A stretch of DNA of 64,000 nucleotides from Patescibacteria group bacterium (GCA_018830295.1 JAHJSM010000001.1:65980-129979); one strand, 5' to 3'. Positions 795 through 29,049 are shown, numbered from the stretch's first letter. Program-made: numbers and translations. The notes: generated by a model from the letters alone, not told the origin.

Positions 795-825
795 GGGGAC
801 AGTCCCTGCCGCGGGGACTGTCCCC
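795..825. repeat. REP-B hairpin: GGGGACAGTCCC-tgccgc-GGGGACTGTCCCC
   Basis: Two 13 nt GC palindromic units separated by 6 nt. It is one of six copies in the window and lies just 3' of the minus-strand gene 872..1480. Confidence 0.8.
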
Positions 826-837
826 GTCATAGTTCTG

Positions 838-858
838 TTCGGCTATCGGATAGCCGAA
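838..858. repeat. REP-A palindrome TTCGGCTATCGGATAGCCGAA
   Basis: Perfect 21 bp palindrome. It is one of seven copies or variants in the window. Confidence 0.8.
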
Positions 859-871
859 TTATTTTTATTTT

Positions 872-1480
872 TTATCTCCCGCAAATTCTTTTTATCTCAC
901 TAACTAATTCTGGAAATTCTGACTGATTAAAATGACCTCTATCCTTAAATATCCTTGCGGTCATGTCGGGCAAATCTTTTTGATATTTCTCGAGGTTAAG
1001 ATAAGGGACAACAGGATCATCTTCGCTATGATAAATAAATATCTTACCACCTTGCTTTTTAAACCTTTTTAAATCATTTAATATGGCAAAACCTCCTAAT
1101 GATTCTTCGATATCGCTTTCTTTATACGGCGGAGCGATTAGAATCGAAGCGCGAATTTTTTTGGGAAACTTATTTTCCGAAAGATATTTTGCTAAAAACA
1201 CTCCACCTAAAGAATGACCAATTAAAACAACATTATTATCTAACAGACGAGCGATTTTTCTAAACAATATCTTCCATTCGGCATATTTAGAATTCATCGG
1301 ATTTGGCATTTTCAATAACAAAACATCAAATCTATTCCCAAGTTCTTTCCGCAAAGAATCATTCCAATTTGTCTTTCTGTATTTATCCAAATCAACCTTC
1401 AAAAACTTCAAAAACGACAGATAATCTTTATCTGTTTCAAAAGAATTTCCACCATGAATTACAACAACTTGCTTTTTCAT
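872..1480 (-). CDS. alpha/beta-fold serine hydrolase (esterase/lipase-like)
   Basis: 202 aa. It has the nucleophile elbow LIGHSLGG and C-terminal Asp/His candidates (HSEDDP, DRGHF). Its size fits small RBBP9/YdeN-like hydrolases. Confidence 0.55.
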   Translation of the reverse strand: MKKQVVVIHGGNSFETDKDYLSFLKFLKVDLDKYRKTNWNDSLRKELGNRFDVLLLKMPNPMNSKYAEWKILFRKIARLLDNNVVLIGHSLGGVFLAKYLSENKFPKKIRASILIAPPYKESDIEESLGGFAILNDLKRFKKQGGKIFIYHSEDDPVVPYLNLEKYQKDLPDMTARIFKDRGHFNQSEFPELVSEIKRICGR

Positions 1481-1547
1481 AATATTTTCAGCAGATAAAA
1501 GACTATTAGAGCCTTTTTATCTTACCTTTTTATTTAACCTAAAAAAT

Positions 1548-1576
1548 TTGACATGTGTATAACTATTTGCTATACT
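1548..1576 (+). promoter_or_regulatory. near-consensus sigma70-like promoter (TTGACA-17-TATACT) with no plus-strand gene downstream
   Basis: TTGACA at 1548-1553, a 17 nt spacer and TATACT at 1571-1576. A compound GC hairpin (1591-1625) follows and then a T-run. Both neighbouring genes are on the minus strand. Confidence 0.3.
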
Positions 1577-1633
1577 TTGACCATATTTGGAAAAGGCGTT
1601 GGCTCGATTGGCCAATGGCCTTTTTCTTTTTGC

Positions 1634-2440
1634 CTACTTTTTATTATTTTCAACTTTTTTACCCTCGCTCTTTAAATCTTCTATATCTCCGTCATTTTTA
1701 TGAAAATGAATATTAAAACTATAATTTCTAAAATCTCGCGTTAAACTATTGACGCCTATCCCTTTTTTAAATTCCTCAACAAATTCCCATTTATATCGCG
1801 ATGGCGAACTTATCACTTTTTCTTTTAGGAGTAATTCATAATTTATTGAACCGATAATCAAATCTGCCATTTGTAATAAATCATTCGTTTTAGAATCTAA
1901 TCGGCAAACACCAGCAATGGCCAATCTTTTAAATTTATTATTCGTATGGTTTTTGACATTTACTTCAAATTTATTTCTTTTGGGAGCAACAAGATTATCA
2001 GCTAACACAATTAGCACTTCATTCTTCTTTAAATTACCCTCTAACAAATGTTTAGTAATTTGTTCATAAGCGACAAACGGGTCGCTATGAAATTCATTTT
2101 TAAAATACTGACTGCGTTTATCAATTGTATAGGACGAAAACCAAACACTGCGCGTTTGGAAAAAGGCGTCCAGAATTTCTTTAGCGGTTTTAATTTTAAC
2201 CTTATTTAAACCGCTAAATTTTAATTCCCACCAAAATCTATTTTTCTCTCTGATATATCGTATTTTTTGTTGTAAATAATACGGTTGCGAACATTTTATC
2301 ATTCCAACTGTAAAATATGGCTGGGTTTTAATATCTAATGTCCCTGATTCATCTAAAAAACAAAATGGCGTCCAGATTTTTTTATAATCAGACAATGTTA
2401 AATTATGATTATTTGCTTTTTTAAAAAATTTTTCTAACAT
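1634..2440 (-). CDS. hypothetical protein, possible DUF3800-like
   Basis: 268 aa. The N-terminal FCFLDESGTL resembles the DESG motif I recall from DUF3800. It has no transmembrane segment. Confidence 0.35.
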   Translation of the reverse strand: MLEKFFKKANNHNLTLSDYKKIWTPFCFLDESGTLDIKTQPYFTVGMIKCSQPYYLQQKIRYIREKNRFWWELKFSGLNKVKIKTAKEILDAFFQTRSVWFSSYTIDKRSQYFKNEFHSDPFVAYEQITKHLLEGNLKKNEVLIVLADNLVAPKRNKFEVNVKNHTNNKFKRLAIAGVCRLDSKTNDLLQMADLIIGSINYELLLKEKVISSPSRYKWEFVEEFKKGIGVNSLTRDFRNYSFNIHFHKNDGDIEDLKSEGKKVENNKK

Positions 2441-2565
2441 ATTTTTTAATTATTTTTTACTCTTGTTTGTATTTGCCATTATCCCATAAATTATATTCTT
2501 AATCAACCACCAACACAAATCAATCAAAAAAACCTCTTGGGAGGCGAAGTTTTTCCTTATCTCAA

Positions 2566-2596
2566 GGGGGACTGTCCCCTCTTAGGGACAGTCCCC
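2566..2596. repeat. REP-B hairpin: GGGGGACTGTCCCC-tcttag-GGACAGTCCCC
   Basis: Same palindromic unit pair as at 795-825. It lies 3' of the minus-strand gene 2620..4302. Confidence 0.8.
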
Positions 2597-2619
2597 AAAT
2601 TACAGCCCCTTCGGATATT

Positions 2620-4302
2620 TTAATACTCCTCCGCGTAGTCGTCTATTGTTATTTCAATCTTCTCTAACCGCGTTGGGATTTTTTTGACCCAGAATGGCCA
2701 GAAAGAAACCCTGGCTGTTTCAATTGTTGGCTGGCTGGATAAATATTTTCTGACTTCCACTTCGCTTTGTCCGGCTAAATCAGTTTTGAGCGACTGAACA
2801 TCAACCTTAAATGCCAAGTCCTCCGCGATGCTCAAAGAAAATTCCGCTTCTCCTTTGCCCCAATCAACTTCCACTTCGCTCCACGATATTTGCTGGCTGT
2901 TAGTCAAAGGCGTTTTATCTCCCGAAATCATTGAAATTAAATTGAAATCAATTAATTGTTTTAATTCTTCTTCGTTAAAAAGATAAGCGCTGATGACGGA
3001 CTTCATTTCAAGAGTAAATTTTTCCGCTTGTTCGCCCGCTTCGGTCGTCAAGGAAACTGTCTCTGTCTCTTCTCTTAAACTCTCTTCTATAATTTTTAAG
3101 TCCGATGGGATTTGCTCTTGGAACGCTTTTCTAATCGCATTTTTCAAATCCTCGCTTAAAATTTCTTCCGCTTTTTGAATATCCTCGGCGGAGACGACTT
3201 TCGCTTTCCCGACAATCCCGCCTGTCATCGCGTTTTCTGACTTGCCGTAAAAGCCAGCGAATTTGGAAGTTCCCTTAAATCCGGGAATTGTAAAATTAGT
3301 CGCGCCAATATTGTATTCCGCGCCCGGCTGGTCGGCGGTTACTTCCACTTCAAGAACACTTGCGATAATTTTTCCGTCCTCTATTTTAGCGCCAGGCACT
3401 GTCACGCCCGCGGAAATCCTGAAAACTTTTCCATCAGGCGATTCAAATCTTGTCCTCGCGACCAACGGCTGGGGCTCGGAACTATACTCGTTGTAAATGG
3501 TAATCACGCCTTTGGCTTTTTTAGTTAACTCCCTTTCGTCCGTCGCTAGAAATTCTCGGCTCTTTGTTTTTTCAACGCTAATTTCTTTAAGAGGAATTTT
3601 ATTTAAACTTTCGTCCGTTTGGGAAATGTCTCTCGCGCCGATAACTAAAAGGTCAAAATCAACTTTCTCTCTTTTAGGGAAAACAGTTATTTCCGTCGTC
3701 GGCAAAACTTGGTAGCCGACTGCGATTGCCGCCGCAAAAGATAAAATGATAAAAGCAGCGAAAATTTTAGGCCATTTTGAAGATGCTGATTTTTTCGCAA
3801 AAATTGGAGGCAGATTTTTCTTCTCGTTTTTAGTGCTGAAAACATTAACTTTAACTTCTTCTTTTTTTTCTTTTTTCACTTCTTCTTCTGTGTTAACAAT
3901 ATCAGCCATTCTTTTTTGGGGAGCGCTCGCGAACGAGAAAAACGAATTGGCTGATTCTTTATCCGATTCCAGACCTTCCGCCAAAAAGTCAATCATATCA
4001 TCTTTCATTTTGGGCTGGTTTTCGTTTTTCTGAATCGCTAACTCCGCCGAAAAATCGCCATCTTGTTTGATATTAAAACCGATTTTTTCAGCCATTTCCG
4101 CGTTCAAATCGCTTGCCACAACAAACGAAACATTTTTCCCAAGATTGTCCGCCTCCCGCTTAAGCAGTTTCAAATTAATTGAACTCTGCCAAATCTGCGC
4201 TCCCGAAGGAACGATCATATTAACTTGGTCGTCATCCGCCTGAACAAGGCGGTCAATGACTGAAATAATTTCCTCATCCGGCTCAAGATAAATATTTTTC
4301 AT
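2620..4302 (-). CDS. hypothetical single-pass membrane protein (cytoplasmic N-domain, one TM, ~360 aa outside domain)
   Basis: 560 aa. A hydrophobic helix WPKIFAAFIILSFAAAIAVGYQVL lies near residue 180, and a K/E-rich linker precedes it. It is immediately downstream of the ftsA-like gene. I could not recognise a family. Confidence 0.5.
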   Translation of the reverse strand: MKNIYLEPDEEIISVIDRLVQADDDQVNMIVPSGAQIWQSSINLKLLKREADNLGKNVSFVVASDLNAEMAEKIGFNIKQDGDFSAELAIQKNENQPKMKDDMIDFLAEGLESDKESANSFFSFASAPQKRMADIVNTEEEVKKEKKEEVKVNVFSTKNEKKNLPPIFAKKSASSKWPKIFAAFIILSFAAAIAVGYQVLPTTEITVFPKREKVDFDLLVIGARDISQTDESLNKIPLKEISVEKTKSREFLATDERELTKKAKGVITIYNEYSSEPQPLVARTRFESPDGKVFRISAGVTVPGAKIEDGKIIASVLEVEVTADQPGAEYNIGATNFTIPGFKGTSKFAGFYGKSENAMTGGIVGKAKVVSAEDIQKAEEILSEDLKNAIRKAFQEQIPSDLKIIEESLREETETVSLTTEAGEQAEKFTLEMKSVISAYLFNEEELKQLIDFNLISMISGDKTPLTNSQQISWSEVEVDWGKGEAEFSLSIAEDLAFKVDVQSLKTDLAGQSEVEVRKYLSSQPTIETARVSFWPFWVKKIPTRLEKIEITIDDYAEEY

Positions 4303-4315
4303 AGATATAATTTCT

Positions 4316-4488
4316 AATTATCAATTTCCAATTTTCAATTATCAAACAATTTCTTAATTTTCAAATAATATTTTAATTTCTAAATTCATTATCTTCTTCT
4401 CTTGTTTTTTCTTGTTTTTTCTTGTTTGAAAAATTAGTAAATTAATTCATTGAAAATTTTTTGAAAATTGATAATTGAAAATTGAAAA
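4316..4488. promoter_or_regulatory. structured intergenic region with inverted heptamer arrays and a (CTTGTTTTTT)x3 core
   Basis: Four tandem TTWTCAA heptamers lie at 4318-4345, with one more at 4358-4364. Tandem TTGAWAA heptamers lie at 4450-4488; these are the reverse complement. Between them, 4401-4430 is tcttgttttttcttgttttttcttgtttg. The region sits between the ftsA stop and the start of gene 2620..4302. Confidence 0.5.
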
Positions 4489-4496
4489 TTAATATT

Positions 4497-5816: not shown

Positions 5817-5867
5817 TATACACTATTTCCGCTTTTCAGACAAATAACTACAGCAACTCCTAACTCC

Positions 5868-5902
5868 GGGGACAGTCCCCATTCTGAATGGGGACTGTCC
5901 CC
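5868..5902. repeat. REP-B hairpin: GGGGACAGTCCCC-attctgaat-GGGGACTGTCCCC
   Basis: 13-14 bp perfect stem. It lies 3' of the minus-strand gene 5915..7321. Confidence 0.8.
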
Positions 5903-5914
5903 TATTATAATTTC

Positions 5915-7321
5915 TTACACTAGCGGTTCCATTTCCTCTATATTATCCTCCTTTTCTTTCGGCAGTTCCTCGTCTTTCAATTTCTCTTTTACGCTTTCCA
6001 AAGAAAGAGCGTATTTCTCGCGGCTTTGATTCATGATTTCCTTTTTGTAAGAAAGATGCCCCGACGGCAAAACCTTAAGCGTTTCGGCAGAGAAAGGATC
6101 AAACGCTTCGCCATCAATGGTCATTTTGATATAAAATTCCCGCGCGCCTAAATTAATCATGTCCTCCGCCTGAAAAATCGGCGTCATTTCCATGGCCAAT
6201 TTCGCGGCGTCATCTCCGCCCACTCTGAAAACAACAATTGTCCCGATATTCCCCAAAACAGTCGCCACAACTTGCTGTAATAATTGCGCCATATATTGAT
6301 GAGCGACCGTGATGCAAAGCCCGTATTTTCTTGATTCGGTAAATAAATTTTCAAAAGTCGTCGTAATTAAATTTTGAAACTCATCCACATAAAGATAAAA
6401 ATCTTTCCTCTTATCTTCCGGCATAGACGCCCTTGCCATGCACGCCTGATAAAGTTTAGTGATAAACATTGAACCAAAAAAACTGCTGTTTTCCTCGCCC
6501 AATTTACCTTTCGCTAAATTGATTAAAAGAATTTTCTTGTCGTTCATAATTTTCTCTAAATCAATTTTGTTTTCTTTCTGCCCAAAAATGCTGCGCAACA
6601 TCGGATTGGAAAGAAATTGGCTCAACTTATTAACCAAAGGAATAATCGCCTCCGTATCAAACTTCTCCGACCAGTCGGCGAACTCAACCGCCCAGAATCT
6701 CTTGACCATATCGTCTTCAATATAGTCAGTAACTTTTTGCCGGTATCGTCTGTCTGTAAGCATAGAAATCATTCCGCGCATCGTCGCGTCAGGGTAATCA
6801 AGTAAAGCCAAAACAGTAAATCTAAAAACATGTTCTAATCGCGGCGTCCAGTTCGCTCCGAATTGCCGCTCCAAAACTTCAATCAACCCTTGGGCGACTT
6901 GGTGTTTTAATTCTGGGACAACATTCAAAAGAGGATTAAAAGAAACGGGAAAATTAATATCCGACGGGTCAATCACAACAATATCATTGATTCTTTCCTT
7001 GGGGATAAAATCCAAAATATTTTCAATCAAATCACCGTGGGGGTCAATCAAACAAACGCCATGCCCATAAGCGATATCCTGTCGGATTAAAAGTTCCAAA
7101 AATTTGGTTTTTCCCACGCCGCTTTTCCCAATAGAATAAATATGCTGTCTCCGGTCCACCCGTTTAATGCCAAAGATAAATTTTTTCGTCTCTAAAGCGG
7201 CCTCGTAATTTGTCCGGCCAAAAAAAGAGCACTCTTTCGCGTCCACATCCGCCGCTCCGTAAACCGGCAATTCCGTCGGAGGAGGCGCGCACTTAATTTT
7301 CCGAATCTTTTCTCTGGTCAT
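5915..7321 (-). CDS. VirD4/TraG/TrwB-like P-loop ATPase (T4SS coupling-protein-like), paralog 2
   Basis: 468 aa. Walker A GKSGVGKT, DPHGD shortly after it, Walker B LYVDEFQN, and a C-terminal AHQYMAQL motif are present. It is paralogous to 10975..12639. Confidence 0.5.
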   Translation of the reverse strand: MTREKIRKIKCAPPPTELPVYGAADVDAKECSFFGRTNYEAALETKKFIFGIKRVDRRQHIYSIGKSGVGKTKFLELLIRQDIAYGHGVCLIDPHGDLIENILDFIPKERINDIVVIDPSDINFPVSFNPLLNVVPELKHQVAQGLIEVLERQFGANWTPRLEHVFRFTVLALLDYPDATMRGMISMLTDRRYRQKVTDYIEDDMVKRFWAVEFADWSEKFDTEAIIPLVNKLSQFLSNPMLRSIFGQKENKIDLEKIMNDKKILLINLAKGKLGEENSSFFGSMFITKLYQACMARASMPEDKRKDFYLYVDEFQNLITTTFENLFTESRKYGLCITVAHQYMAQLLQQVVATVLGNIGTIVVFRVGGDDAAKLAMEMTPIFQAEDMINLGAREFYIKMTIDGEAFDPFSAETLKVLPSGHLSYKKEIMNQSREKYALSLESVKEKLKDEELPKEKEDNIEEMEPLV

Positions 7322-7327
7322 ATTAGT

Positions 7328-7987: not shown

Positions 7988-7992
7988 ATAAT

Positions 7993-9270: not shown

Positions 9271-9289
9271 CTTTTCAAATGTCAATATT

Positions 9290-17494: not shown

Positions 17495-17525
17495 GGGGGC
17501 TGCCCCCGCAACGGGGGCAGCCCCC
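17495..17525. repeat. REP-B variant hairpin GGGGGCTGCCCCC-gcaac-GGGGGCAGCCCCC, terminator-like
   Basis: 13 bp stem. On the minus strand a run of U follows it (plus strand aaaaaaa at 17488-17494). It lies 3' of gene 17529..17852. Confidence 0.7.
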
Positions 17526-17873: not shown

Positions 17874-17894
17874 TTCGGCTATCGGATAGCCGAA
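17874..17894. repeat. REP-A palindrome TTCGGCTATCGGATAGCCGAA
   Basis: Perfect 21 bp palindrome lying 3' of the HD-domain gene. Confidence 0.8.
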
Positions 17895-18917: not shown

Positions 18918-18927
18918 TTTATTACAG

Positions 18928-18998
18928 TCGGCTTTACCAAAGCCGAATACTCTAACTTATGGCAATTGGCTATTCGGCTTTGGTAAAGCCGAATAGCC
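18928..18998. repeat. REP-A2 doublet: two inverted copies of TCGGCTTT(ACC/GGT)AAAGCCGA
   Basis: Element a lies at 18928-18949 and element b at 18968-18998 (GGCTATTCGGCTTTGGTAAAGCCGAATAGCC). They share the stem TTCGGCT/AGCCGAA with REP-A. Element b encodes the C-terminus (LFGFTKAE) and the stop codon of the RAYT gene. Confidence 0.75.
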
Positions 18999-19614
18999 AT
19001 TCCGTGAAATCTTTTTTAAATTGTTTTTTGTCTGCGATAAATAACTCAAAAAATTTATTTTGATTAGTGACAAATGAAAAATTATCTTTTCCAATAATAT
19101 CTAAATAACTTGACCATTTATAATCTTCTAAAAATTTTATCGTTTGTTTCTGATTGCTTAGACCGTTTTCCTTCCAATTTTTATCAATTAATTGAATTGG
19201 ATTAGCAAAAATATAAAATGGTAAATACGTAAAATGATTATCTTTCTTTATAAGGATTATTTTTGACTTACCTTGAAATAAAACTCCGCTTCGTTCGTTT
19301 TTCAAATTAAAATATTGAGTATAGCTACTATTTACTTTCTTAGAAAACATACTTGCGCCGCCGTCGCGCTTCTCTCGAACTAAAATATGATAATGATTAG
19401 ACATCAAGCACCAACACAAAACATCCACCAACCCATCATCATCGCTGGTCGGCTTTCGGATAGCCGACCGTCGTTTGTGGTATGACATAAATGTTTCGTT
19501 TTTATTGTTAAAGTCGTAGAGATTATGAACAAAACGCAAATAATCTCTTTCATCAAGAAAAATTTTACGCTTATCTACACCTCTATTTAAGATATGATAA
19601 ATATCTCCCTTCAT
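18970..19614 (-). CDS. IS200/IS605-family Y1 transposase of the REP-associated (RAYT, TnpA_REP) type
   Basis: 214 aa. YHILNRGVDKRKIF...LMSNHYHILV is the HuH motif, SSYTQYFN carries the candidate catalytic Tyr, and FQGKSK and YKWSSY follow. This pattern matches E. coli RAYT and IS200 TnpA. REP-A family palindromes flank it on both sides. Confidence 0.75.
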   Translation of the reverse strand: MKGDIYHILNRGVDKRKIFLDERDYLRFVHNLYDFNNKNETFMSYHKRRSAIRKPTSDDDGLVDVLCWCLMSNHYHILVREKRDGGASMFSKKVNSSYTQYFNLKNERSGVLFQGKSKIILIKKDNHFTYLPFYIFANPIQLIDKNWKENGLSNQKQTIKFLEDYKWSSYLDIIGKDNFSFVTNQNKFFELFIADKKQFKKDFTEWLFGFTKAE

Positions 19615-19617: not shown

Positions 19618-20112
19618 TTATTTGTCTGTTCGGCTATCCGATAGCCGAATGATTGTATGAGTCAATATTTGAATAATTTTTCTTTTTGGTTTACCTTTTT
19701 TGTTTTTGCCGTAAGTATAGTGATGAATTGACGGAACGCCATTTTTTGAAGAGTTGCTAATCGCTTTGCCATCGCCTAAATAAAATCCTATGTGTCGATG
19801 TAATATTTCATCAACACCCTTTCTTTCTTCCCAAACAAGAACATTGCCTGGAACTAATTTCTTAGTTTTCTCCCATCCATTTTCGAGCATATCTTTAACT
19901 GTACTTTTGACTGTGGCATGGGGCGATAAAATCAAGCCGAAAAAATTTAAAATAGACGAAACATGATAGGCGCAAGAAAGATTGCCATTTTTAAGAATGT
20001 CTCTTTTCTTGCCGTTTTCTAAAACATAAAGCCGCCGAAACATTTTACAGCCCCGACTCGCCCTAATCGCCTCTAAATAATTTTGATAAACAAGAATTTT
20101 AAGTTTTGACAT
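19618..20112 (-). CDS. hypothetical protein, possible Cys/His hydrolase-like
   Basis: 164 aa. The last 11 residues are encoded by REP-A. Cys (LSCAYH) and His (HRHIGFYLG) positions could form a catalytic dyad. I could not assign a family. Confidence 0.35.
19629..19649. repeat. REP-A palindrome TTCGGCTATCCGATAGCCGAA
   Basis: Perfect 21 bp palindrome 15 bp upstream of the RAYT start. It also encodes the C-terminal [10 protein letters not shown] of ORF 19618..20112. Confidence 0.8.
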
Positions 20113-22045
20113 TTAAAAATTTGGCGTTAATAGCCACAATTACCGTGGAAAGCGACATCGATAATGCGCCGAGGGCGGGACTTAAAAGAACGCCCCAATT
20201 ATAAAAGACGCCGGCGGCGACTGGAATGGCGATAAGATTATAACCCGTCGCCCAAATTAAATTTTGAATCATCTTGCTATACGACGCGCGCGCCAAAAAG
20301 ACGACGCCGACAAGAGCCAAAGGGTTGCTTTTAACTAAAATCACATCAGCGGCCTCAATCGCCACATCCGTCCCTGCGCCCACCGCAATTCCAACATCGG
20401 CTTGAGCCAAAGCCGGCGCGTCGTTCACGCCATCGCCCGTCATCGCCACAATCAAACCGCGAGATTGAATCTCTTTAATTTTGGTCAACTTATCTTGAGG
20501 CAGAACCTCTGCCATAAACTCATCCAACCCTATTTCTTCAGCCACCCGTTCCGCGACCTGCCGATTATCCCCCGTCAGCATTATGCTTTTAATGCCCATC
20601 TTCCTCAACATCGCGACGGCCTCTTTTGATTCCGCCCTGACGACATCCGCCAAAGCGACCGCGCCAATCGGCTTGTTATCCGCCAAAACATAAACAATCG
20701 TCTTGCCCTCTTTTTTTATTTCCCCAATCTCTTTATTCTCCACCGTCACGCCCAACTCTTTCAAATATCCAAAACTGGCGACTGTTATTTTCCTGCCCAT
20801 AACCATTCCGCGCGCGCCTTTGCCCGGAATAGATTTAAAATCCGAAACAGCGTAAATTTCTCGAGCCGAAGCCGCGACGCTCTTGGCGATCGGATGGCTG
20901 GAATGGGAATCAACCGAAGCAGCCAAGTTCAAAACCTCGTCTTTGCTTAAATTTTCAAAAAAACTAATTATATCCGTCACTCCAAATTCACCTTTTGTTA
21001 AAGTACCCGTCTTGTCAAAAACAACCGTATTTATTTTTCTCATCTGCTCAAAGGCCGCTCTGTTCCTAATTAAAAATCCGTTGCTGGCGGCCAAAGAAAT
21101 TGAAACCGCCACGACCAAAGGAACGGCCAAACCCAAAGCGTGCGGACAAGCAATGACCATGACTGTCACCGCTCGCTCAATGGCAAAAAACAATTCTTTT
21201 TCAGAAAACATCAGCCATGAAAATAAAGTGAGCGCGCCGACAGACAAAGCGCCGACCGTCAGCCACAAAGCGGCCTTGTTCGCCAAATCCTGCGTTTTTG
21301 ACTTGCTCTCCTGGGCTTGGCGGACCAAATCAATTACTTGGGATAAATACGAATCCTTGCCCATCTTTTCCGCCCTGACAGTAATCGCCCCCTCGCCATT
21401 GACCGAAGCGCCAATGATTTTATCGCCAACTTTTTTGAAAACCGGTTCCGATTCGCCCGTGAGCATGGATTCATTGACTGATGTTTCTCCACTTATGACA
21501 ACGCCATCAACTGGCGCCTTCTCGCCCGGCTTAATTAATATCTTATCGCCCGCCTTCAAATTTTCAATCGCCACTTCTTCAAGCCCTCCATCTTCTTTGA
21601 CTTTATGCGCGGTGGAAGGCATTAATTTCGCCAATTCCTCCAAAGCCCGTCCAGCCCCCATAACAGACCTCATTTCAATCCAATGCCCCAAAAGCATAAT
21701 ATCTATCAAGGTGACTAACTCCCAAAAAAACAGATGCCCTGTCAAGCCAAAAACAACAGCCGAACTATACCCATAAGCGGTCGTAATCGCGACCGCGACC
21801 AAAGTCATCATCCCCGGCGTTTTCTTTTTCGCCTCGTCTAAAAACCCTTTCAAAAAAGGCCAGCCGCCGTAAAAATATATGATTGAAGACAAAGTAAATA
21901 AGACATATAAATTCTTATCCATCGACGAAAGCGCCAAAACAGGCAACGACAAAACCAAACAAACAAAAAACCGCCACCCAAAACCCCCCGCCGAATGAGC
22001 GCGATGATTCTGATGCCCCTTATGATTTTGATGATTCATATCCAT
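20099..22045 (-). CDS. P1B-type heavy-metal ATPase, CopB-like (CPH motif, His-rich N-terminus)
   Basis: 648 aa. The N-terminus [18 protein letters not shown] is His-rich. TM CPH ([11 protein letters not shown]), [21 protein letters not shown] and a TGES-like actuator are present. There is no N-terminal HMA domain. Confidence 0.75.
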
Positions 22046-22064
22046 ACTATTGATCCCCCTCTAT

Positions 22065-22097
22065 GGGGACAGTCCCCCGTCCGCGGGGGCTGCCCCC
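22065..22097. repeat. REP-B hairpin (mixed units GGGGACAGTCCCC / GGGGGCTGCCCCC)
   Basis: Same family as 795-825; this copy combines the two unit variants. Confidence 0.7.
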
Positions 22098-22114
22098 GTC
22101 ATCTTTCTCGGCTC

Positions 22115-22143
22115 AAGTGTTCAACCCTGAAGGTTGAACACTT
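22115..22143. other. 12 bp perfect hairpin AAGTGTTCAACC-ctga-GGTTGAACACTT abutting the higA stop
   Basis: Seen directly. A T-run follows it only on the plus strand. Confidence 0.4.
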
Positions 22144-22446
22144 TTACATCGCGGGCTGTAAAATCTTGACTTCGTAACGCAATTTTTCGGATAGTTGTTC
22201 TGTTTGCGTTTCTAACTCGTATCGCGATTGGAGATTGAGCCAAAATTGCGGAGACACGCCAAAATATCTGCCCAAACGCAGAGCTGTATTCGCCGTAATC
22301 GCCCTTGTTCCGTGGACAATTTCATTTATTCTTCGCGGCGAAACACTAATATCTTTCGCCAAACGATACTGTGTAATATTAAATGGCTTCAGAAATTCTT
22401 CTGAAAGAATTTCCCCCGGATGAATAGGTTGTATTTTTTTAGACAT
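22144..22446 (-). CDS. higA: HigA-family antitoxin (XRE-type HTH)
   Basis: 100 aa. IHPGEILSEEFLKPFNITQYRLAKDISVSPRRINEIVHGTRAITANTALRLGRYFGVSPQFWLNLQ matches the HigA signature. It lies directly downstream of higB. Confidence 0.8.
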   Translation of the reverse strand: MSKKIQPIHPGEILSEEFLKPFNITQYRLAKDISVSPRRINEIVHGTRAITANTALRLGRYFGVSPQFWLNLQSRYELETQTEQLSEKLRYEVKILQPAM

Positions 22447-22449
22447 AAT

Positions 22450-22731
22450 TTAGTGATAATCAATTATTTCCACATTATACGCGTCTCCCTGACGCCATTC
22501 AAAACAAATTCTCCATTTCTTATTAATGCGAATGCTGTGTTGTTTTTTTCTTTTCCCGCTTAATTTTTCAAGATGATTTGACGGAGGAATTCTTAAATCG
22601 TTTAGAAACATCGCGGCATCTATAATCCAAAGTTTACGCATAGCCACTCTTTGTATTGAACGAGAAAAACCGCGCGAATAATTCCTTTCAAATATTTTTC
22701 GCGTTTCTTTACATTGAAAACTTTTAATCAT
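22450..22731 (-). CDS. higB: HigB toxin (RelE/ParE superfamily)
   Basis: 93 aa. MIKSF...RKLWIIDAA...LRIPPSNHLEKLSGKRKKQHSIRINKKWRICFEWRQGDAYNVEIIDYH is classic HigB. Confidence 0.8.
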   Translation of the reverse strand: MIKSFQCKETRKIFERNYSRGFSRSIQRVAMRKLWIIDAAMFLNDLRIPPSNHLEKLSGKRKKQHSIRINKKWRICFEWRQGDAYNVEIIDYH

Positions 22732-22797
22732 GTATCATATTAACGCGTTGCGTTAGTAGTGTCAAGTATAGAATAGCTGAATTATACTTCTATTATT

Positions 22798-23178
22798 TTA
22801 TTTCAAGTTTTTTAAATATTCCTTTATTCTCTCCCGATTCTCGTTCTCCTTGTTTCCTTTGAAATATATCTCAATAAATTCAATCCCAATCATTTCTATT
22901 GTTTGATGATTTTCAATATAGGCGTAAATAATTCTTAAATCCTTTTTCTTTAAACTTCTGCAAAAAAATCTTGCTTTAATAATGTAAATAAAATCATTTT
23001 TCGCAATTACATTAAAATGTTTGCCAATCCCCAAGGGCGCCGCGCTCAAAACCTTTTTAAATTCGGTTAAATCATCATCCGTGGTCTTGAATTTTTTAGA
23101 TAATTTCTTAAAATCTTTTTGAAATTCCTCCGTATTTTTAAAGTTCATCGTCATAGTTTCTGACCGAGTGGTCATCAT
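22798..23178 (-). CDS. RelE/YafQ-like toxin paired with the Panacea-domain antitoxin
   Basis: 126 aa. The C-terminal KKDLRIIYAYIENHQTIEMIGIEFIEIY resembles the RelE/YafQ core. It overlaps the upstream antitoxin gene. The likely start is an internal Met (MNFKN, about 23148). Confidence 0.45.
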   Translation of the reverse strand: MMTTRSETMTMNFKNTEEFQKDFKKLSKKFKTTDDDLTEFKKVLSAAPLGIGKHFNVIAKNDFIYIIKARFFCRSLKKKDLRIIYAYIENHQTIEMIGIEFIEIYFKGNKENENRERIKEYLKNLK

Positions 23179-23923
23179 CGCGATAAAAAACGGTTTCGTA
23201 ACTAATTTCTTCGCCCGCCTCGTGAACTCTCCACGGAGTGTCCGAGTGCGAGTATTCGCTTAATTCTTTGGCATTTTTCCACGCCAAACGATTCAAAACA
23301 TTGTCAATGTGCTGGATTTCTTGGGCGGACAAAATTTTTAAATCAGCGGAACATCGCGGCAAATATTTTTTTTGTTCGTATTGAAAATGCTTGCTTTTTA
23401 CTTTTTCAATTTCCCCGTTAGCAATCATTCTGTCGGTTATTTTTTTAAACTCAATCGGCGTCGGACCAAAATGATTTTTAATATATTTGGCGCCAATCAA
23501 CTGCTCTTCAAACTTTTCGTAATAATCAAAATCAATAAAATAAAGCAACTTATATATCGCTGTCTCGCCGATATTCGGACGAGCGCCGACTTTTTCAAGA
23601 AGATAAAGTAAAACCTCTTTAAACTTTTGCGCATTCGCGCGCGGCATAATAATTCTCATCTCCGGTTTTGCTATTTTTTTTATTTTCTTTTCTTTCGCCA
23701 GTTCGGTTTCTATTTTCTTTTTTCCTTCGCTCAAAAAATCATTCAAAGACATACTAAAAAGAGACGCCAATTTTTGCGCCTCCAAAACGGTCAACTCCCG
23801 CCCGCCTTTTTCTATTTGCGTATAAGTCGGCCGCGACATCTTTAATTTTTCCGCCAAATACCCTTGTGAAAAATTATTTTCTTCGCGCAATAGTTTAATT
23901 TTCTTGAATAAATCCTTAACCAT
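23138..23923 (-). CDS. XRE-HTH plus Panacea (DUF4065) domain protein, PanA-like antitoxin
   Basis: 261 aa. The N-terminal HTH is GYLAEKLKMSRPTYTQIEKGGRELTVLEAQKLASLF. The C-terminal AIYKLLYFIDFDYY...GPTP pattern matches DUF4065/Panacea as I recall it. Confidence 0.55.
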   Translation of the reverse strand: MVKDLFKKIKLLREENNFSQGYLAEKLKMSRPTYTQIEKGGRELTVLEAQKLASLFSMSLNDFLSEGKKKIETELAKEKKIKKIAKPEMRIIMPRANAQKFKEVLLYLLEKVGARPNIGETAIYKLLYFIDFDYYEKFEEQLIGAKYIKNHFGPTPIEFKKITDRMIANGEIEKVKSKHFQYEQKKYLPRCSADLKILSAQEIQHIDNVLNRLAWKNAKELSEYSHSDTPWRVHEAGEEISYETVFYRDDDHSVRNYDDEL

Positions 23924-23994
23924 ATACCTCTATTATATATCCTGTAAAGAATTCTTGTCAAGTGGATAAGTAAGAATGCTTAACACCAGAATAA

Positions 23995-24015
23995 TTCGGC
24001 TATCCGATAGCCGAA
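23995..24015. repeat. REP-A palindrome (extended form AATTCGGCTATCCGATAGCCGAATT)
   Basis: Perfect palindrome 5 bp after the secA stop. Confidence 0.8.
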
Positions 24016-24019
24016 TTGT

Positions 24020-26572
24020 TTATTGCCCGCAGCATTTTTTGAATTTTTTTCCGGAGCCGCAGGGGCAGGGGTCGTTTCGGCCTGCTTTTGTCGCGGAGGC
24101 CGTTTTGGGGACAGTCCCCGCAACGGGGACTGTCCCCAAGGGTTGATGCGCTATTGGAGCGTTGGGCGAAATAGAGACCTTGTAAATCATATTAACGACT
24201 GTTGATTGGATTGCCGCCATTAATCTTTGAAAAAGACGAATCCCCTCGTTTTTGTATTCCACCAACGGATCTTTTTGCCCGTAAGCGCGCAAGCGGACGC
24301 TGTCTCGCAAGTGGTCCATATTGTCCAAGTGGTCCATCCAAAGCGTGTCCAGAGAACGCAAGAGAACATATTTTTCAACGCGACGCGCGTTATCTTCGCC
24401 CAAATCATCTTCCTTTTTTTTGTACGCCTCCTCGGCTAATTTAATTAAATAATCAGAAACCTCGCCCTCGCTTTTCAGTTCCGCCAACGCCCGCGGCAAT
24501 TCCTCTGTTTGAAAAATACTCCCAATGATTTGACTAACTTCTTCGCGAGCGGCAATTTTCTTAATTTCATCCTTAATCATTTCCACCACTTCCGTTCTGA
24601 CATTCTTTTCTCTCAAAACCGCTTTTCGTTTTTTGTAAATCGTCTCCCTCTGCTTATTCATAACATCATCGTATTCCAAAATATGCTTCCGCGCGTCAAG
24701 ATTATATCCCTCAATCCTGCCCTGCGCCGATTCAATCGCTTTGGAAACCAACTTGTTTTCAAGCGGTTGGTCTTCAGGCACTTTCAGCATCTCCATCATT
24801 GACTTAACCCTGTCCCCGCCAAAAACGCGCATCAAATCGTCTTCCAAGGAAACGAAAAATTGACTGGAACCGGGGTCGCCCTGCCGTCCCGCTCTTCCCC
24901 GCAACTGGTCGTCAATCCGCCTCGCCTCGTGCCTCTCCGTCCCGATAACATGGAGACCGCCCAGCCCCGCCACTTCGTCATGCTTCGCCTCCTTTTCGCT
25001 TTCCTCCAAATCCCGCCCGCCTAAAATAATATCAACGCCCCGACCTGCCATATTGGTCGCGACTGTCACCGCCCCCTTCTGCCCCGCTTGAGCAAGAATT
25101 CGCGCTTCCTGTTCGTGGTTTTTCGCGTTAAGAATTTGGTGAGGGATGCCTTCTTTTCCTAAATAAGCCGAAAGCAGTTCGTTTTTTTCAATAGAAACCG
25201 TTCCCACTAAAACGGGCTGTCCCGCCTGGTATCTCTTTTTAATATCCCCAACAATCGCCCGCAATTTCCCATTCTCGTTTTTGTAAATGCTATCCGGCAA
25301 ATCCTCTCGGATCGCCGGCTTGTTGGTCGGAACCTCAACCACTTTTAATTTGTAAACCTTGTCAAACTCCTCGGCGGAAGTCAGAGCCGTTCCCGTCATT
25401 CCCGAAAGTTTTTCATACATCCGAAAATAGTTTTGAAAAGTAATAGAAGCAAGCGTGCGGCTTTCCTGTTGAACGCGGACATTTTCTTTCGCCTCAAGCG
25501 CCTGATGTAAACCGTCCGAATATCTTCGTCCTGGCATTAAACGCCCCGTGAATTCATCAACGATAATCACCTGCCCGTCTTTAACAACATAATCCCTGTC
25601 TTTTTTGAAAATAACCTCCGCCCGAAGCGCCTGTTCCAAATGGTGAACATAACGAATGCCGCCTTCTTCATAAATATTGTCCATTCCCAATATTTTTTCC
25701 ACCTTGTCAGTGCCTTCCTCCGTCAGAGTCACCGCTTTCATTTTTTCGTCCAAATTGTAATCGGCGTTCTCTTTCAACTGTGGCGTAATCCGACAAAACT
25801 GCTCATACATTTTCGTTGACTCCGCGTCAGGCATGGAAATAATCAGAGGCGTTCGCGCTTCATCAATTAAAATGCTGTCTATCTCGTCAACAATCGCGAA
25901 ATACGGCTCGCGTTGAGCCATCGCCTCCAAAGAAGGCGCCATATTATCCCGCAAATAATCAAAACCGAATTCGTTGTTCGTCCCGTAGGTAATATCCGCC
26001 AAATACGCCTCTTTGCGGACGACCTCCTTAAGGTTTTCCATTTCAACCGTAATTTCGTTTTCGTCAGGCGCTGTTTGCGGTTCAAAAATAAATGACTTTT
26101 CGTGATTAAGACAGGCAACGGAAATTCCCAAAAGATGGAAAATCGGACCCATCCAGTTGGCGTCTCTTCGGGATAAATAGTCGTTAACTGTGACAATATG
26201 AACGCCCTTGCCCGTAAGCGCGTTTAAGTAGGCCGCCAAAACAGAGGACAAGGTTTTACCCTCGCCCGTTTTCATCTCGGCGATCTGCCCCCGATGCAAA
26301 ACAACCCCGCCAATTAATTGAACATCAAAATGCCTCTGTCCAAGAGTTCTTTTTGCCGCCTCGCGCGCCAAAGCAAACGCCTCGGGAAGCAAATCATCCA
26401 ACGACTCGCCTTTCTCTAAGCGCGCCTTAAATTCCGCCGTCTTATCCTTCAACTCCCCATCGGGAAGAGAAGCAAACTCCTTTTCAAGTTCGTTAATCCT
26501 CTCAACTAACGGCCCAACATCCCTCAAATTCTTCTCATTAGCATCCCCAAAAATTTTAGTAAAAAATGACAT
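24020..26572 (-). CDS. secA: preprotein translocase ATPase SecA
   Basis: 850 aa. The N-terminus MSFFTKIFGD...KTGEGKT is present. The C-terminal zinc-binding tail is CPCGSGKKFKKCCGQ. Confidence 0.9.
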   Translation of the reverse strand: MSFFTKIFGDANEKNLRDVGPLVERINELEKEFASLPDGELKDKTAEFKARLEKGESLDDLLPEAFALAREAAKRTLGQRHFDVQLIGGVVLHRGQIAEMKTGEGKTLSSVLAAYLNALTGKGVHIVTVNDYLSRRDANWMGPIFHLLGISVACLNHEKSFIFEPQTAPDENEITVEMENLKEVVRKEAYLADITYGTNNEFGFDYLRDNMAPSLEAMAQREPYFAIVDEIDSILIDEARTPLIISMPDAESTKMYEQFCRITPQLKENADYNLDEKMKAVTLTEEGTDKVEKILGMDNIYEEGGIRYVHHLEQALRAEVIFKKDRDYVVKDGQVIIVDEFTGRLMPGRRYSDGLHQALEAKENVRVQQESRTLASITFQNYFRMYEKLSGMTGTALTSAEEFDKVYKLKVVEVPTNKPAIREDLPDSIYKNENGKLRAIVGDIKKRYQAGQPVLVGTVSIEKNELLSAYLGKEGIPHQILNAKNHEQEARILAQAGQKGAVTVATNMAGRGVDIILGGRDLEESEKEAKHDEVAGLGGLHVIGTERHEARRIDDQLRGRAGRQGDPGSSQFFVSLEDDLMRVFGGDRVKSMMEMLKVPEDQPLENKLVSKAIESAQGRIEGYNLDARKHILEYDDVMNKQRETIYKKRKAVLREKNVRTEVVEMIKDEIKKIAAREEVSQIIGSIFQTEELPRALAELKSEGEVSDYLIKLAEEAYKKKEDDLGEDNARRVEKYVLLRSLDTLWMDHLDNMDHLRDSVRLRAYGQKDPLVEYKNEGIRLFQRLMAAIQSTVVNMIYKVSISPNAPIAHQPLGTVPVAGTVPKTASATKAGRNDPCPCGSGKKFKKCCGQ
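24107..24137. repeat. REP-B hairpin embedded in-frame in the secA C-terminal linker
   Basis: GGGGACAGTCCCC-gcaac-GGGGACTGTCCCC. Translated on the minus strand in the secA frame it gives GTVPVAGTVP. It lies 29 codons before the stop, between the body and the zinc-finger tail. Confidence 0.75.
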
Positions 26573-26634
26573 AAAGTTATTGTTATATCCTCACTATAAA
26601 ACGAATCGCCCCAAAAATCAATTATAAATTTTGT

Positions 26635-26662
26635 TTGACACAAATTTTTGATTTGTTATACT
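26635..26662 (+). promoter_or_regulatory. sigma70-like promoter for hicBA (TTGACA-16-TATACT)
   Basis: TTGACA at 26635-26640 and TATACT at 26657-26662, 7 nt before the hicB ATG at 26670. Confidence 0.45.
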
Positions 26663-26669
26663 GGGTTAT

Positions 26670-26915
26670 ATGAAGAAAACTAAGAAAAAAATTTATCATT
26701 TCCCAGTTGTTATTGAACAAGACGAAATGGGGTATTATATCGGCAAAGTTCCCGCTTTAAGAAGTTGCTACACCCAAGCCAAAACATTGCCCGAATTATA
26801 TAAACGCTTAAATGAAGTAGTTGGTCTTTGTGTTGAAGTTGAAAAAGAAAATTTTTCCCAAAGAATTGAACAAAACAAATTTATAGGCGTCCAACAATTA
26901 GAATTTTCTAGATAA
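26670..26915 (+). CDS. hicB: HicB-family antitoxin (UPF0150)
   Basis: 81 aa. YHFPVVIEQDEMGYYIGKVPALRSCYTQAKTLPELYKRLNEVVGLCVE matches the HicB N-domain signature. Confidence 0.7.
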   Translation: MKKTKKKIYHFPVVIEQDEMGYYIGKVPALRSCYTQAKTLPELYKRLNEVVGLCVEVEKENFSQRIEQNKFIGVQQLEFSR

Positions 26916-26921
26916 TCATAC

Positions 26922-27158
26922 ATGCCTAAACTTAATTTACTGCCAGCGAAAAAAATGGTAAAAATCTTAAAATGTTTGGGCTTCCAGAATATTAGAACAA
27001 AAGGCAGTCATTATTTTTTCTTCAATTCAACAACCAACAAAACCGCGACCGTCCCAGTTCACGGAAACGAATATTTAAGCATCGGAATTCTCAAGGAAAT
27101 TTTAAGAGATATTGAATTAAGCGTTGAGGAATATGAAAAGTTAAGAAGGAAAATTTAA
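26922..27158 (+). CDS. hicA: HicA toxin (YcfA-like mRNA interferase)
   Basis: 78 aa. KILKCLGFQNIRTKGSHYFF...VPVHGNEYLSIGILKEILRD matches the HicA signature. Confidence 0.7.
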   Translation: MPKLNLLPAKKMVKILKCLGFQNIRTKGSHYFFFNSTTNKTATVPVHGNEYLSIGILKEILRDIELSVEEYEKLRRKI

Positions 27159-27180
27159 AATTACTGTTATTTTTTAAATC

Positions 27181-27210
27181 AAAAAACAACCTTTATGGGT
27201 TGTTTTTTTT
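27181..27210. terminator. bidirectional intrinsic terminator between hicA(+) and hpf(-)
   Basis: AAAAACAACC-tttatg-GGTTGTTTTT is a 10 bp stem, flanked by an A-run upstream and a T-run downstream. Confidence 0.65.
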
Positions 27211-27226
27211 GGTTTATCATCACCCC

Positions 27227-27646
27227 CTAATCTTCATCCTCTTCCACCACATCCCCAACTTTGGAGGAACGGAACCTTGCCATAGGGTTGAACTGCCAAA
27301 ACTTTTTCCACGACCTCGCGCCGCGAATTTCTTTTGTTTCTTTTTTATGAGTGTATTGCCTGATTTTTCTCCTTAATTCATCTTTGACCAAATCAACCGC
27401 CGCGTGGAGCGAATGCCCTGTTTCCTCCGCCCGCAAAAGTTTCCCGCCAAGATTTAAATTTACTTCCGCCCTGAAAATCTCGCCCTGTCTCTGCCCTTTC
27501 TTGATTCTCCCGACCTCTACTCTCGCTTCCACTGTTTCGGGGTCAAATTTCCCCAAAAGTTTCTCCAGCCCGCCAATTTTCTCCTCGATGTATTGATTAA
27601 CACTTTGAGAAATATCCACATCTTTTGTCTTAATAATTATTTTCAT
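27227..27646 (-). CDS. hpf: ribosome hibernation promoting factor (HPF/RaiA family)
   Basis: 139 aa. MKIIIKTKDVDISQSVNQYIEEKIGGLEKL...VEVG...GEIFRAEVNLNLGGKLLRAEE...LHAAVDLVKDELRRKIRQY is present, followed by an acidic C-terminal tail. Confidence 0.75.
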   Translation of the reverse strand: MKIIIKTKDVDISQSVNQYIEEKIGGLEKLLGKFDPETVEARVEVGRIKKGQRQGEIFRAEVNLNLGGKLLRAEETGHSLHAAVDLVKDELRRKIRQYTHKKETKEIRGARSWKKFWQFNPMARFRSSKVGDVVEEDED

Positions 27647-27706
27647 AAAATTATATTGCTTATATCTTCATTTTAACAGATATATAAATTAACGCAAACC
27701 GCATTA

Positions 27707-27943
27707 TTATTTGTATGTATTATCAGATCGTCTTTCCACAGTCAAAAGAGTTATTTTTCTGTCTTGAACTCTATATATAATTCTAATATCGCCCCTTCTA
27801 ATTCTATACACATCGCGCCGCGTTTTTAATTTTTTGATTTTCAAGTCCTCAAAATCGCCTTTTTTAATTTTTTCTAAAATTACCTTAATCGCTTTTCGCT
27901 CTTTGGCAGAAAATTTTTTTAGCGCTTTGGCGATTTTATCCAT
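27707..27943 (-). CDS. RelE/ParE-family toxin
   Basis: 78 aa. YRIRRGDIRIIYRVQDRKITLLTVERR matches the RelE/ParE core. Confidence 0.65.
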   Translation of the reverse strand: MDKIAKALKKFSAKERKAIKVILEKIKKGDFEDLKIKKLKTRRDVYRIRRGDIRIIYRVQDRKITLLTVERRSDNTYK

Positions 27944-27946
27944 ATC

Positions 27947-28174
27947 TTATAAGCGGGATATTACATCATCAATATCAACGCCGCCTTTTTTAATTTTAGT
28001 AAAATCAACTACCTCTTCCCATTTCGCGCTTTTCTCAATTGGGCAAATTCTAAATAAAGGTTTTGACCTTTTGAAAATAATAAAAGAAGCGCCTTTTGCC
28101 ACCTTTTTAGCGTATTTAGGCATATTCACACGCAATTCTTTTAAATTTATAATATTTTCCATAAATTTTAACAA
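27947..28174 (-). CDS. Phd/YefM-like antitoxin
   Basis: 75 aa. LRVNMPKYAKKVAKGASFIIFKRSKPLFRICP resembles the Phd/YefM N-terminus. It lies directly upstream of the RelE-like toxin with a 3 nt gap. Confidence 0.5.
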   Translation of the reverse strand: MLKFMENIINLKELRVNMPKYAKKVAKGASFIIFKRSKPLFRICPIEKSAKWEEVVDFTKIKKGGVDIDDVISRL

Positions 28175-28238
28175 GTTTAAAGATTAACTAAAGTTTAACA
28201 AAAGATAATCTATGCGTCAAGGGTAGTGTTATCTATTA

Positions 28239-29018
28239 TCAAAACCCCACTCTCTCTATCTCTTCTTTTAAATCCAAACCGAATTTTTTCTTAACTTCTG
28301 TTTTCGCCAAAGCGATGAGCGCCGCGATATCTTTCGCTCGCGCGCCTCCAAGGTTGATAATGAAATTAGCGTGCTTTTTTGAAATCTCCGCTTCGCCCAT
28401 TCGCTCTCCTTTCAGCCCGCAATCATCAATCAGTTTTCCCGCGAAGCGCCCCGGCGGATTTTTAAAAATGCATCCCGCCGAAGGATAATTCAACGGCTGC
28501 GTTTCTTTTCTTTTTATAAAATATTCTCTAATTAATTTTTCGCTTTTTTCTTTGTCGCCTTTTTTTAATTCTAATTCAACCGAAAAAATAATATTGTCTT
28601 CTTTTTCAATATTTTTAACTAATTGAGAAATATCCGAACCAAAAGCATGCGCGTTAACTTTAACCGCTCCGCCAATTGTTCCTGGAATGCCAACAGCCCA
28701 TTCCAGCCCCGTCAAACCATTTTCCACGGACAACCTGACTAAATCGGATAATTTAACCCCTGCCTCACTCTTAATTATATTTTTACTCACTCTTCGCTGT
28801 TCATTGTTCGCCAATATCACCGTCCCATCAAACCCCTCGTCGCTCACCAAAAGGTTGCTCCCGCCGCCTAAAATAAAAAAAGGCAGTCCTTTCTCCTTCG
28901 CAAAGAAGACCGCCCTAACCAAATCGTCCTTATCCCGCGCGTCAAAAAAATACCTCGCCGCCCCGCCAACTCGAAACGAAGTCTGCCCCGCCAAAGAAAC
29001 ATTTTCTTGAATTTTCAT
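28239..29018 (-). CDS. murB: UDP-N-acetylenolpyruvoylglucosamine reductase (short form)
   Basis: 259 aa. TSFRVGGAARYFFDARDKDDLVRAVFFAKEKGLPFFILGGGSNLLVSDEGFDGTVI is an FAD-binding MurB N-domain. Confidence 0.7.
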   Translation of the reverse strand: MKIQENVSLAGQTSFRVGGAARYFFDARDKDDLVRAVFFAKEKGLPFFILGGGSNLLVSDEGFDGTVILANNEQRRVSKNIIKSEAGVKLSDLVRLSVENGLTGLEWAVGIPGTIGGAVKVNAHAFGSDISQLVKNIEKEDNIIFSVELELKKGDKEKSEKLIREYFIKRKETQPLNYPSAGCIFKNPPGRFAGKLIDDCGLKGERMGEAEISKKHANFIINLGGARAKDIAALIALAKTEVKKKFGLDLKEEIERVGF

Positions 29019-29028
29019 AAACGCGCCA

Positions 29029-29049
29029 TTCGGCTATCCGATAGCCGAA
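29029..29049. repeat. REP-A palindrome TTCGGCTATCCGATAGCCGAA
   Basis: Perfect 21 bp palindrome between the metalloprotease gene 3' end and the murB start. Confidence 0.8.

Follow-up and report, generated by a model that had tools for sequence, protein, structure and literature searches.

A REP-type palindrome family with a probable cognate RAYT-like gene, and a second, unrelated hairpin family, in a Patescibacteria genome segment

A 64-kb stretch of a Patescibacteria (Portnoybacteria-like) genome (GCA_018830295.1, JAHJSM010000001.1:65980-129979), hereafter the window, was analyzed with regard to two families of short palindromic repeats, A and B, and a transposase-like open reading frame (ORF), 18970..19614. 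Our analysis makes it quite probable that family A is a repeat of the repetitive extragenic palindrome (REP) type, that ORF 18970..19614 encodes its cognate, single-copy and vertically inherited REP-associated tyrosine transposase (RAYT), a class-2 TnpA-Y1 HUH enzyme, the two together forming a 'REPtron', and that family B is a second, unrelated hairpin of the GGGGWSAS class. Repeat copies were counted inside the window, which has a GC content of about 38% over its 64 kb and in which all genes from 872 to 30824 lie on the minus strand. What is known of REP-RAYT systems comes almost wholly from complete genomes of Proteobacteria, Cyanobacteria and Bacteroidetes. A full-text literature search returned no description of such a system in Patescibacteria or the candidate phyla radiation (CPR). 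What is found here is a REPtron of a known kind in a phylum for which no description was found, and its unusual features (no GTAG guide, below-threshold protein similarity, an in-frame internal copy that has a nearly fixed position and varies along with the flanking ones) each have some precedent.

The RAYT-like gene (18970..19614, minus strand) encodes a protein of 214 amino acids with the motifs NHYH (residues 72-75), FQG (112-114) and YIFANP (133-138) and a helical C-terminal extension of 75 amino acids. In an alignment of 25 homologues, N72-H73-Y-H75 and Y133-IFA-N137-P138 were found to be invariant or nearly so. The first-pass annotation had made the transposase link depend on the HuH and Tyr residues, and since H73-Y-H75 and Y133 are invariant in the 25 homologues that link stands. 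According to Quentin et al., 'Y---NP' is the signature of class-2 TnpA-REP and 'Y---Q' that of IS200 (PMC6006769); because Y133-x3-NP matches the former, the protein carries the Tyr signature of class-2 TnpA-Y1. An AlphaFold (AF2) model of the protein (pLDDT 84, pTM 0.83) is disordered only at residues 41-55, where an internal hairpin of the gene lies. The top Foldseek match of the model was 4er8_A, the E. coli RAYT bound to a REP hairpin (E=4e-4, prob 1.00), and the next matches were the IS608, ISDra2 and IS200 transposases. As judged from this model, ORF 18970..19614 encodes a distant HUH/Y1 enzyme with the Y1 HUH transposase fold. Its nearest homologues belong to Candidatus Portnoybacteria and other Patescibacteria metagenome-assembled genomes (MAGs), mostly annotated as 'hypothetical' and in a few cases as 'transposase'. 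A precomputed match to PF01797 is present in a few homologues, and a profile search retrieved 430 clusters (50% identity) at E<=1e-30.

Family A (TTCGGCTATCSGATAGCCGAA) occurs in the window far above chance. The pattern TTCGGCTATC[C/G]GATAGCCGAA is matched exactly at five positions (838, 17874, 19629, 23995 and 29029), while shuffled sequence gave no match; a copy with three mismatches is located at 19448, and the looser pattern TCGGCT-N7-AGCCGA adds the variants at 18927 and 18973, which have the form TTCGGCTTT-ACC/GGT-AAAGCCGA[A/C]. DNA folding predicts a stem of 9-10 bp and a 3-nt loop. The solo copies begin 4-13 nt past a stop codon and 10-71 nt ahead of the next start, between co-directional genes. 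They lie at 17874..17894 (6 nt past the stop of an HD-domain gene and 21 nt before the next start), at 23995..24015 (4 nt past the secA stop), at 29029..29049 (11 nt past the stop of ORF 29061..30824 and 10 nt before the murB start) and in a minus-strand composite at 795..858, downstream of a hydrolase gene (872..1480), in which the spacer cagaactatgac links family A (838-858) to family B (795-825). The adjacency of A and B at this site had been noticed earlier, and the composite indeed recurs in a closely related strain, L023. No conserved target or guide was found beside the solo family-A copies, only an A/T extension of the palindrome.

The remaining copies are attached to the RAYT-like gene itself. 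Upstream, a family-A hairpin (19629..19649) ends 14 nt before the ATG and also codes for the C-terminal tail of ORF 19618..20112, which lies upstream. Within the gene, an in-frame hairpin (19447..19469, GGTCGGCTATCCGAAAGCCGACC) encodes RSAIRKPT in the disordered loop of residues 41-55. At the 3' end, a 33-nt perfect palindrome (18967..18999, -17 kcal/mol), with the family-A variant core TTTACCAAA and including the copy at 18973, holds the last codons and the stop, and a second unit (18927..18947), with its loop inverted (GGT vs ACC), follows 24 nt past the stop; this downstream doublet resembles a REPIN. The statement of the first-pass annotation that copies sit at intergenic 3' ends is therefore valid in part. 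It holds for the solo family-A copies, but three family-A copies (19448, 18973 and 19629) and one family-B copy (24107) overlap coding sequence.

The link between hairpin and gene recurs among the homologues. Thirteen loci were compared, namely the window and the contigs of twelve homologues at 52-94% protein identity (fetched related or metagenome loci and contigs carry labels such as L012, L017, L021, L023, L024 and L025). An upstream hairpin (-28 to -130) and a hairpin at or next to the stop codon, both of roughly 21 nt and lineage-specific, are present in all thirteen, so that the flanking of the gene by family A on both sides, as described earlier for the window (19629 on one side, 18967-18999 and 18927 on the other), has its counterpart in every locus. 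An in-frame internal hairpin about +145 to +160 nt into the gene was found in 10-11 of the 13 loci; a clear one was not seen in L017 or L019/L020. The window-type hairpin, TTCGGCTAT-CSG-ATAGCCGAA, is shared by the window, L012, L023 and L024, and other lineages have GTCGGACGT-GCG (L017), GTTGGCCAT-GCG (L025), TTTGGACAT-GCG (L026), CTTGGCTAT-GCG (L145) or CTACGGAAGT-GCG-ACGTCCGTAG (L148 and L027). Compensatory changes were observed at seven of the nine stem pairs. The T...A pair that closes the loop never varies and the two 3' loop bases (CG) hardly do; the first base of the loop is either G or C. Lineages with more distant proteins also tend to have more distant hairpins (Mantel r=0.61, p=1e-4). 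From one lineage to the next, the peptide encoded by the internal copy is unrelated (SAIRKP, YGTARS, GHRMS), which argues that the DNA palindrome is maintained and not the peptide. In addition, GCA_024653605.1 contains two RAYT paralogues, about 55% identical, each with a different hairpin. On these comparisons, repeat and enzyme appear to co-evolve, and each paralogue to have its own repeat.

The position of the gene was also found to be conserved. The window backbone, g587-murB-S30AE-secA-...-secD-secF-sigma, is shared with L024 and L025, whose proteins are 61-64% identical and in which the RAYT gene directly follows secA; the secA-RAYT adjacency was further observed in L012, L020 and L021. 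No second Y1 gene was found in the 64-kb window. Since the secA-RAYT-secDF position is conserved, the gene seems to be domesticated rather than part of an active IS200-type element. Sequence comparison points to a vertically inherited, housekeeping-like gene that is single-copy within the 64 kb, and single copy number, conserved position and own hairpins are the properties described for RAYTs (PMC5581495).

It is unlikely that the locus is an active insertion sequence of the IS200/IS605 type, with the solo palindromes as its footprints or miniature derivatives. Such an element would share with the locus the Y1 HUH fold and the subterminal hairpins on both sides of the Y1 gene, which in IS200/IS605 (IS608, ISDra2) are recognized as single-stranded DNA, and it could account for the gene's different position relative to g164 in the window and in L012/L021 and for the two paralogues in GCA_024653605.1. 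However, insertion sequences of this kind carry Y---Q, are multi-copy, spread horizontally and often include tnpB, none of which was seen here. The Tyr motif is the class-2 Y---NP (PMC6006769), there is a single gene copy in the window and no adjacent tnpB, the same secA-secDF position is kept at 61-64% protein identity, and the paralogues have diverged to about 55% identity and possess different hairpins.

Neither motif is confined to the window. The exact family-A 21-mer is found in 15 contigs of about 11 other MAGs, mostly of Patescibacteria, with 1-3 copies per MAG on separate contigs, and most of these copies are intergenic, 0-13 nt past a stop codon; family B matches more than 117 contigs, as detailed below. 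A scan of viral contigs for family A found nothing. Three of the 15 exact matches belong to MAGs labelled Gammaproteobacteria, Nitrospinota and Acidobacteriaceae (L003, L008 and L016). Those of Gammaproteobacteria and Acidobacteriaceae are situated within ORFs and have GC-rich flanks, and that of Nitrospinota (L008) falls between genes; these matches may be mis-binned contigs, chance matches or real copies.

Family B (GGGGACWGTCCCC and the GGGGGCWGCCCCC variant) is represented by 12 units at six sites (795, 2567, 5868, 17495, 22065 and 24107), against 0.23 units expected. Like family A, it is thus a real motif family, as had been proposed, but its description as a pair of palindromic units has to be revised. 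The two 13-nt units are exact reverse complements in all six sites, with A at the centre of one and T at the centre of the other, so that each site forms a single long hairpin. Its stem measures 12-16 bp and its folded loop 3-7 nt (5-9 nt between the 13-nt units), and folded as DNA it has a stability of -14 to -21 kcal/mol (z -4 to -8). Apart from the composite mentioned above, the copies are located at 2567..2596 (23 nt past the stop of ORF 2620..4302, with no T-run after it), at 5868..5902 (a 16-bp stem, 12 nt past the stop of the TrwB-like ORF 5915..7321), at 17495..17525 (minus strand; a variant with GGGGGCTGCCCCC arms, followed by TTTTTTT and the only copy resembling an intrinsic terminator), at 22065..22119 (minus strand; the hairpin, 22065-22097, and a preceding family-A remnant) and at 24107..24137 (minus strand). 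The last is a perfect hairpin inside secA (24020..26572, minus strand), where it is in frame and encodes GTVPVAGTVP in the flexible linker that precedes the SEC-C zinc finger. The SecA of a related genome, L021, has a decayed look-alike at the equivalent place (GAVPTASGVVP), and the secA copy is for this reason probably old, a fresh insertion being disfavoured. A TrwB/TraG-like coupling ATPase gene (5915-7321) and a DUF3800 gene (1634-2440) adjoin family-B copies, and L024 and L025 contain a DUF87/TrwB gene in the same backbone.

Exact family-B hairpins were detected in more than 117 metagenome contigs with a GC content of 29 to 75%; some low-GC contigs among them also carry the GGGGGCWGCCCCC variant, and one has genes homologous to those of the window. 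The arm GGGGACAG is self-complementary, as in some terminal inverted repeat (TIR) families, and agrees with GGGGWSAS, which the inverted repeats on either side of TIRYT genes have in common (PMC3733652; PMC6006769). A RAYT-profile search of the family-B contigs revealed two Y1_Tnp-positive genes (NHFH, WQGRYKSF, RYVERNPV) with family-B hairpins on both sides in L055 and L134. Given that the hairpins flank Y1 genes and that the arm fits GGGGWSAS, the most fitting reading of family B is as a repeat that belongs to another Y1 lineage. The window protein itself resembles the TIRYT proteins (TnpA-Y1 subclass 2.1; PMC3733652) in its length and in having the NH[YF]H and FQ motifs. In contrast to TIRtrons, family B flanks no Y1 gene in the window, where the local RAYT gene is flanked by family A, and subclass 2.1 is reported as not REP-associated. 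No partner gene of family B was found in the 64-kb window and, if one exists in the source genome, it lies outside this stretch. Separately, about 20 metagenome contigs of intermediate GC content, including L028, L039, L041, L048, L066, L083, L103, L108, L124, L142 and L143, share an extended family-B element with conserved flanks (ctaagaagGGGGACAGTCCCCCTTCCGGAAAGGGGACTGTCCCCttttggttgcgg), which points to a terminator-like element conserved in a single abundant lineage.

A number of results weigh against the reading of families A and B adopted here. The protein scores below the profile cut-offs (17.9 bits against 23 for Pfam Y1_Tnp, PF01797; 26.4 bits against 80 for NCBIfam REP_Tyr_transpos, NF047646) and no PDB sequence match was obtained with either the single protein or the 25-sequence profile, which is why the fold comparison was needed. 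The canonical 5' GT[AG]G guide tetranucleotide is absent from the flanks of 26 exact family-A copies, as these are conserved only as A at -1 and T at +1; the hairpins of L148 and L027 have CTAC...GTAG stem feet, and atypical REPs that lack GTAG have been described in subclasses 2.6 and 3 (PMC6006769). Dispersal is not universal, since in loci of 17-20 kb from five other genomes cognate hairpins were found only at the gene itself. Within the window, all family-A copies lie at most 18 kb from the RAYT gene, four of them being solo and exact, and a motif scan found neither family A nor family B in its 30-64 kb part. The pair-count test for the stem is partly circular, because most input sequences were found as palindromes and high pairing is to be expected; the informative point in these data is that different palindromes occupy homologous positions. 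As for family B, a flanked Y1 gene was seen in only 2 of 117 loci, and the GC range of its matches (29-75%) could in part mean that a stable GC-rich stem recurs by chance when the database is very large.

Both families could instead be host RNA elements (terminators, mRNA-stabilizing 3' hairpins or attenuators) that evolved in place, their proximity to a Y1 gene being incidental. The location of most copies directly past stop codons, the stable stems, the T-run at 17495 and a consensus scan that calls several copies terminator-like are in line with this explanation, which we nevertheless consider quite unlikely. A T-run follows only one of the six family-B copies, the other five being rejected as intrinsic terminators for want of it, and no family-A copy on the gene strand. 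Moreover, 21-mers of identical sequence are found at unrelated loci and in about 11 further MAGs, copies are placed 10-21 nt ahead of the next co-directional start codon or even inside coding sequence, the hairpins co-vary with the RAYT protein, and Rfam gave no match at gathering thresholds. A secondary role of the hairpins in the host may exist. Very improbable is a third explanation, in which family A would be the double-stranded operator of a dimeric transcription factor with a regulon including the Y1 gene: a perfect palindrome of 21-23 bp would suit it, as would the location of some copies 10-35 nt ahead of a start codon, but the copies inside the gene and at its stop stay in place across most of the 13 lineages although their sequence changes, compensatory changes preserve the stem rather than the sequence, and copy position follows the upstream stop codon and not a promoter.

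Gene order around the RAYT gene has changed at places where family-A copies are found. Compared with L012, L021 and L024, the window has a 4.3-kb accessory block (19650..23994, minus strand) between secA and the RAYT gene, g164 is shifted from downstream to upstream of the RAYT gene, and the RAYT gene is separated from g107 by an HD-domain gene. On either side of the block stands a family-A copy, both in the same orientation, with that at 23995 forming the left boundary. The block comprises a helix-turn-helix (HTH) plus SocA/Panacea gene, g126, HigB/HigA-like genes, a P-type ATPase gene and g164, whose tail is read through a family-A hairpin; five related genomes lack the block between secA and the RAYT gene. 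A family-A copy stands at each junction near the RAYT gene (23995, 19629, 18927/18973 and 17874).

Strain L023, which is 96-99% identical to the window over 6.9 kb, allows a closer comparison. It has an intact A-cagaactatgac-B composite at the place that corresponds to 22065..22119, where the window keeps only a family-A remnant (AGCCGAgaaagatgac) beside family B. The RAYT gene shows 43 differences in 776 nt between the two, clustered around the internal hairpin, which in L023 is swapped to the TTTGGTAAA subtype. Such differences at hairpin sites of near-identical strains suggest recent turnover, whichever enzyme or process caused it. The earlier characterization of the system as active or recently active is hence supported, and only indirectly, in its second part. 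At the spot of the L023 family-A copy, the window contains an unrelated palindrome, GTGTTCAACCTTCAGGGTTGAACAC (22116-22140), and L023 also has there a 39-codon ORF with a hairpin-encoded tail at its end. In addition, the HigB-like toxin gene of the window (22450-22731) is cleanly missing in L023 (1635-1640), where the HTH partner is left.

By analogy with E. coli TnpA-REP and IS608, the family-A hairpin, with its 9-10 bp stem and 3-nt loop, would form on single-stranded DNA and be recognized by the enzyme, probably via the near-invariant T-[G/C]CG-A loop region. The enzyme would then use Y133 and the H73/H75 metal site to cut and rejoin DNA at the foot of the hairpin, and this cutting and rejoining could spread or replace hairpin copies. 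We infer from the same analogy that the RAYT-like protein is catalytic and recognizes single-stranded DNA, and that the enzyme, rather than recombination between copies, may be responsible for dispersal and rearrangement. A more far-reaching proposal, which we regard as tentative and rather doubtful, is that the protein belongs to an unclassified Patescibacteria TnpA-Y1 subclass, in which an obligatory module of three hairpins (upstream, internal in frame and at the stop codon) would let the enzyme regulate or edit its own gene, and REPs would serve as joints for the insertion, excision or shuffling of accessory cassettes. If this were true, streamlined CPR genomes would possess a dedicated, domesticated cassette-exchange system based on single-stranded DNA, with cassettes such as toxin-antitoxin pairs, a P-type ATPase or the HD protein being shuffled at REPs.

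Among known systems, the E. coli REPtron (TnpA-REP/RAYT YafM, PDB 4er8, with REPs and bacterial interspersed mosaic elements; TnpA-Y1 subclasses 2.2 and 2.5; PMC6006769; PMC3116915) offers the best structural match. It likewise consists of a single-copy HUH/Y1 gene with cognate palindromes, some as inverted doublets, copies in intergenic 3' regions, repeat/enzyme co-evolution and vertical inheritance. Unlike it, the hairpins described here are perfect palindromes of 21-23 bp without a 5' GT[AG]G guide, the protein has NHYH, FQG and the C-terminal helical extension and stays below the profile cut-offs, and the host is a Patescibacteria member of about 38% GC with low observed copy numbers. A cognate REP in frame inside tnpA-REP, in a peripheral loop, has been described for subclass 2.4 of Cyanobacteria and Bacteroidetes (PMC6006769). 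In our case, by contrast, the internal copy precedes the HuH motif (residues about 48-55), has a fixed position in 10-11 of 13 loci and changes in concert with the flanking copies. The Rickettsia palindromic elements (RPE) and intragenic REPs (PMC3733652) are comparable in that a palindromic repeat is tolerated in frame in a housekeeping gene, as seen for family B in the secA linker and for family A in the RAYT loop and the g164 tail, but the present elements are much shorter and belong to unrelated sequence families.

The system, with its short perfect palindromes at fixed positions, provides a natural experiment in the co-evolution of a protein and a DNA hairpin, and the internal in-frame hairpin that changes together with the flanking copies offers a testable case of a gene carrying the substrate of its own enzyme. 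It is also a candidate explanation of local gene-order change in very small genomes. For MAG assembly it carries a warning, as a related contig folds back at a hairpin doublet: the 12-kb contig of L021 (JAYEKG010000065.1) is a mirror-image fold-back with its hinge (6068-6118) at a family-A-like hairpin doublet. It is probably an artefact of the assembly or the library, to which the hairpins gave rise.

Finally, a search for tRNA and tmRNA genes found nothing. The remaining part of the window (30882-64000) is of low GC content (about 0.30) and consists of tightly packed operons with very short intergenic gaps, among which were found a sugar transferase gene, a SPASM radical-SAM gene at 40357 and at least five B12-binding radical-SAM paralogues (34508, 46822, 50534, 54689 and 61394).

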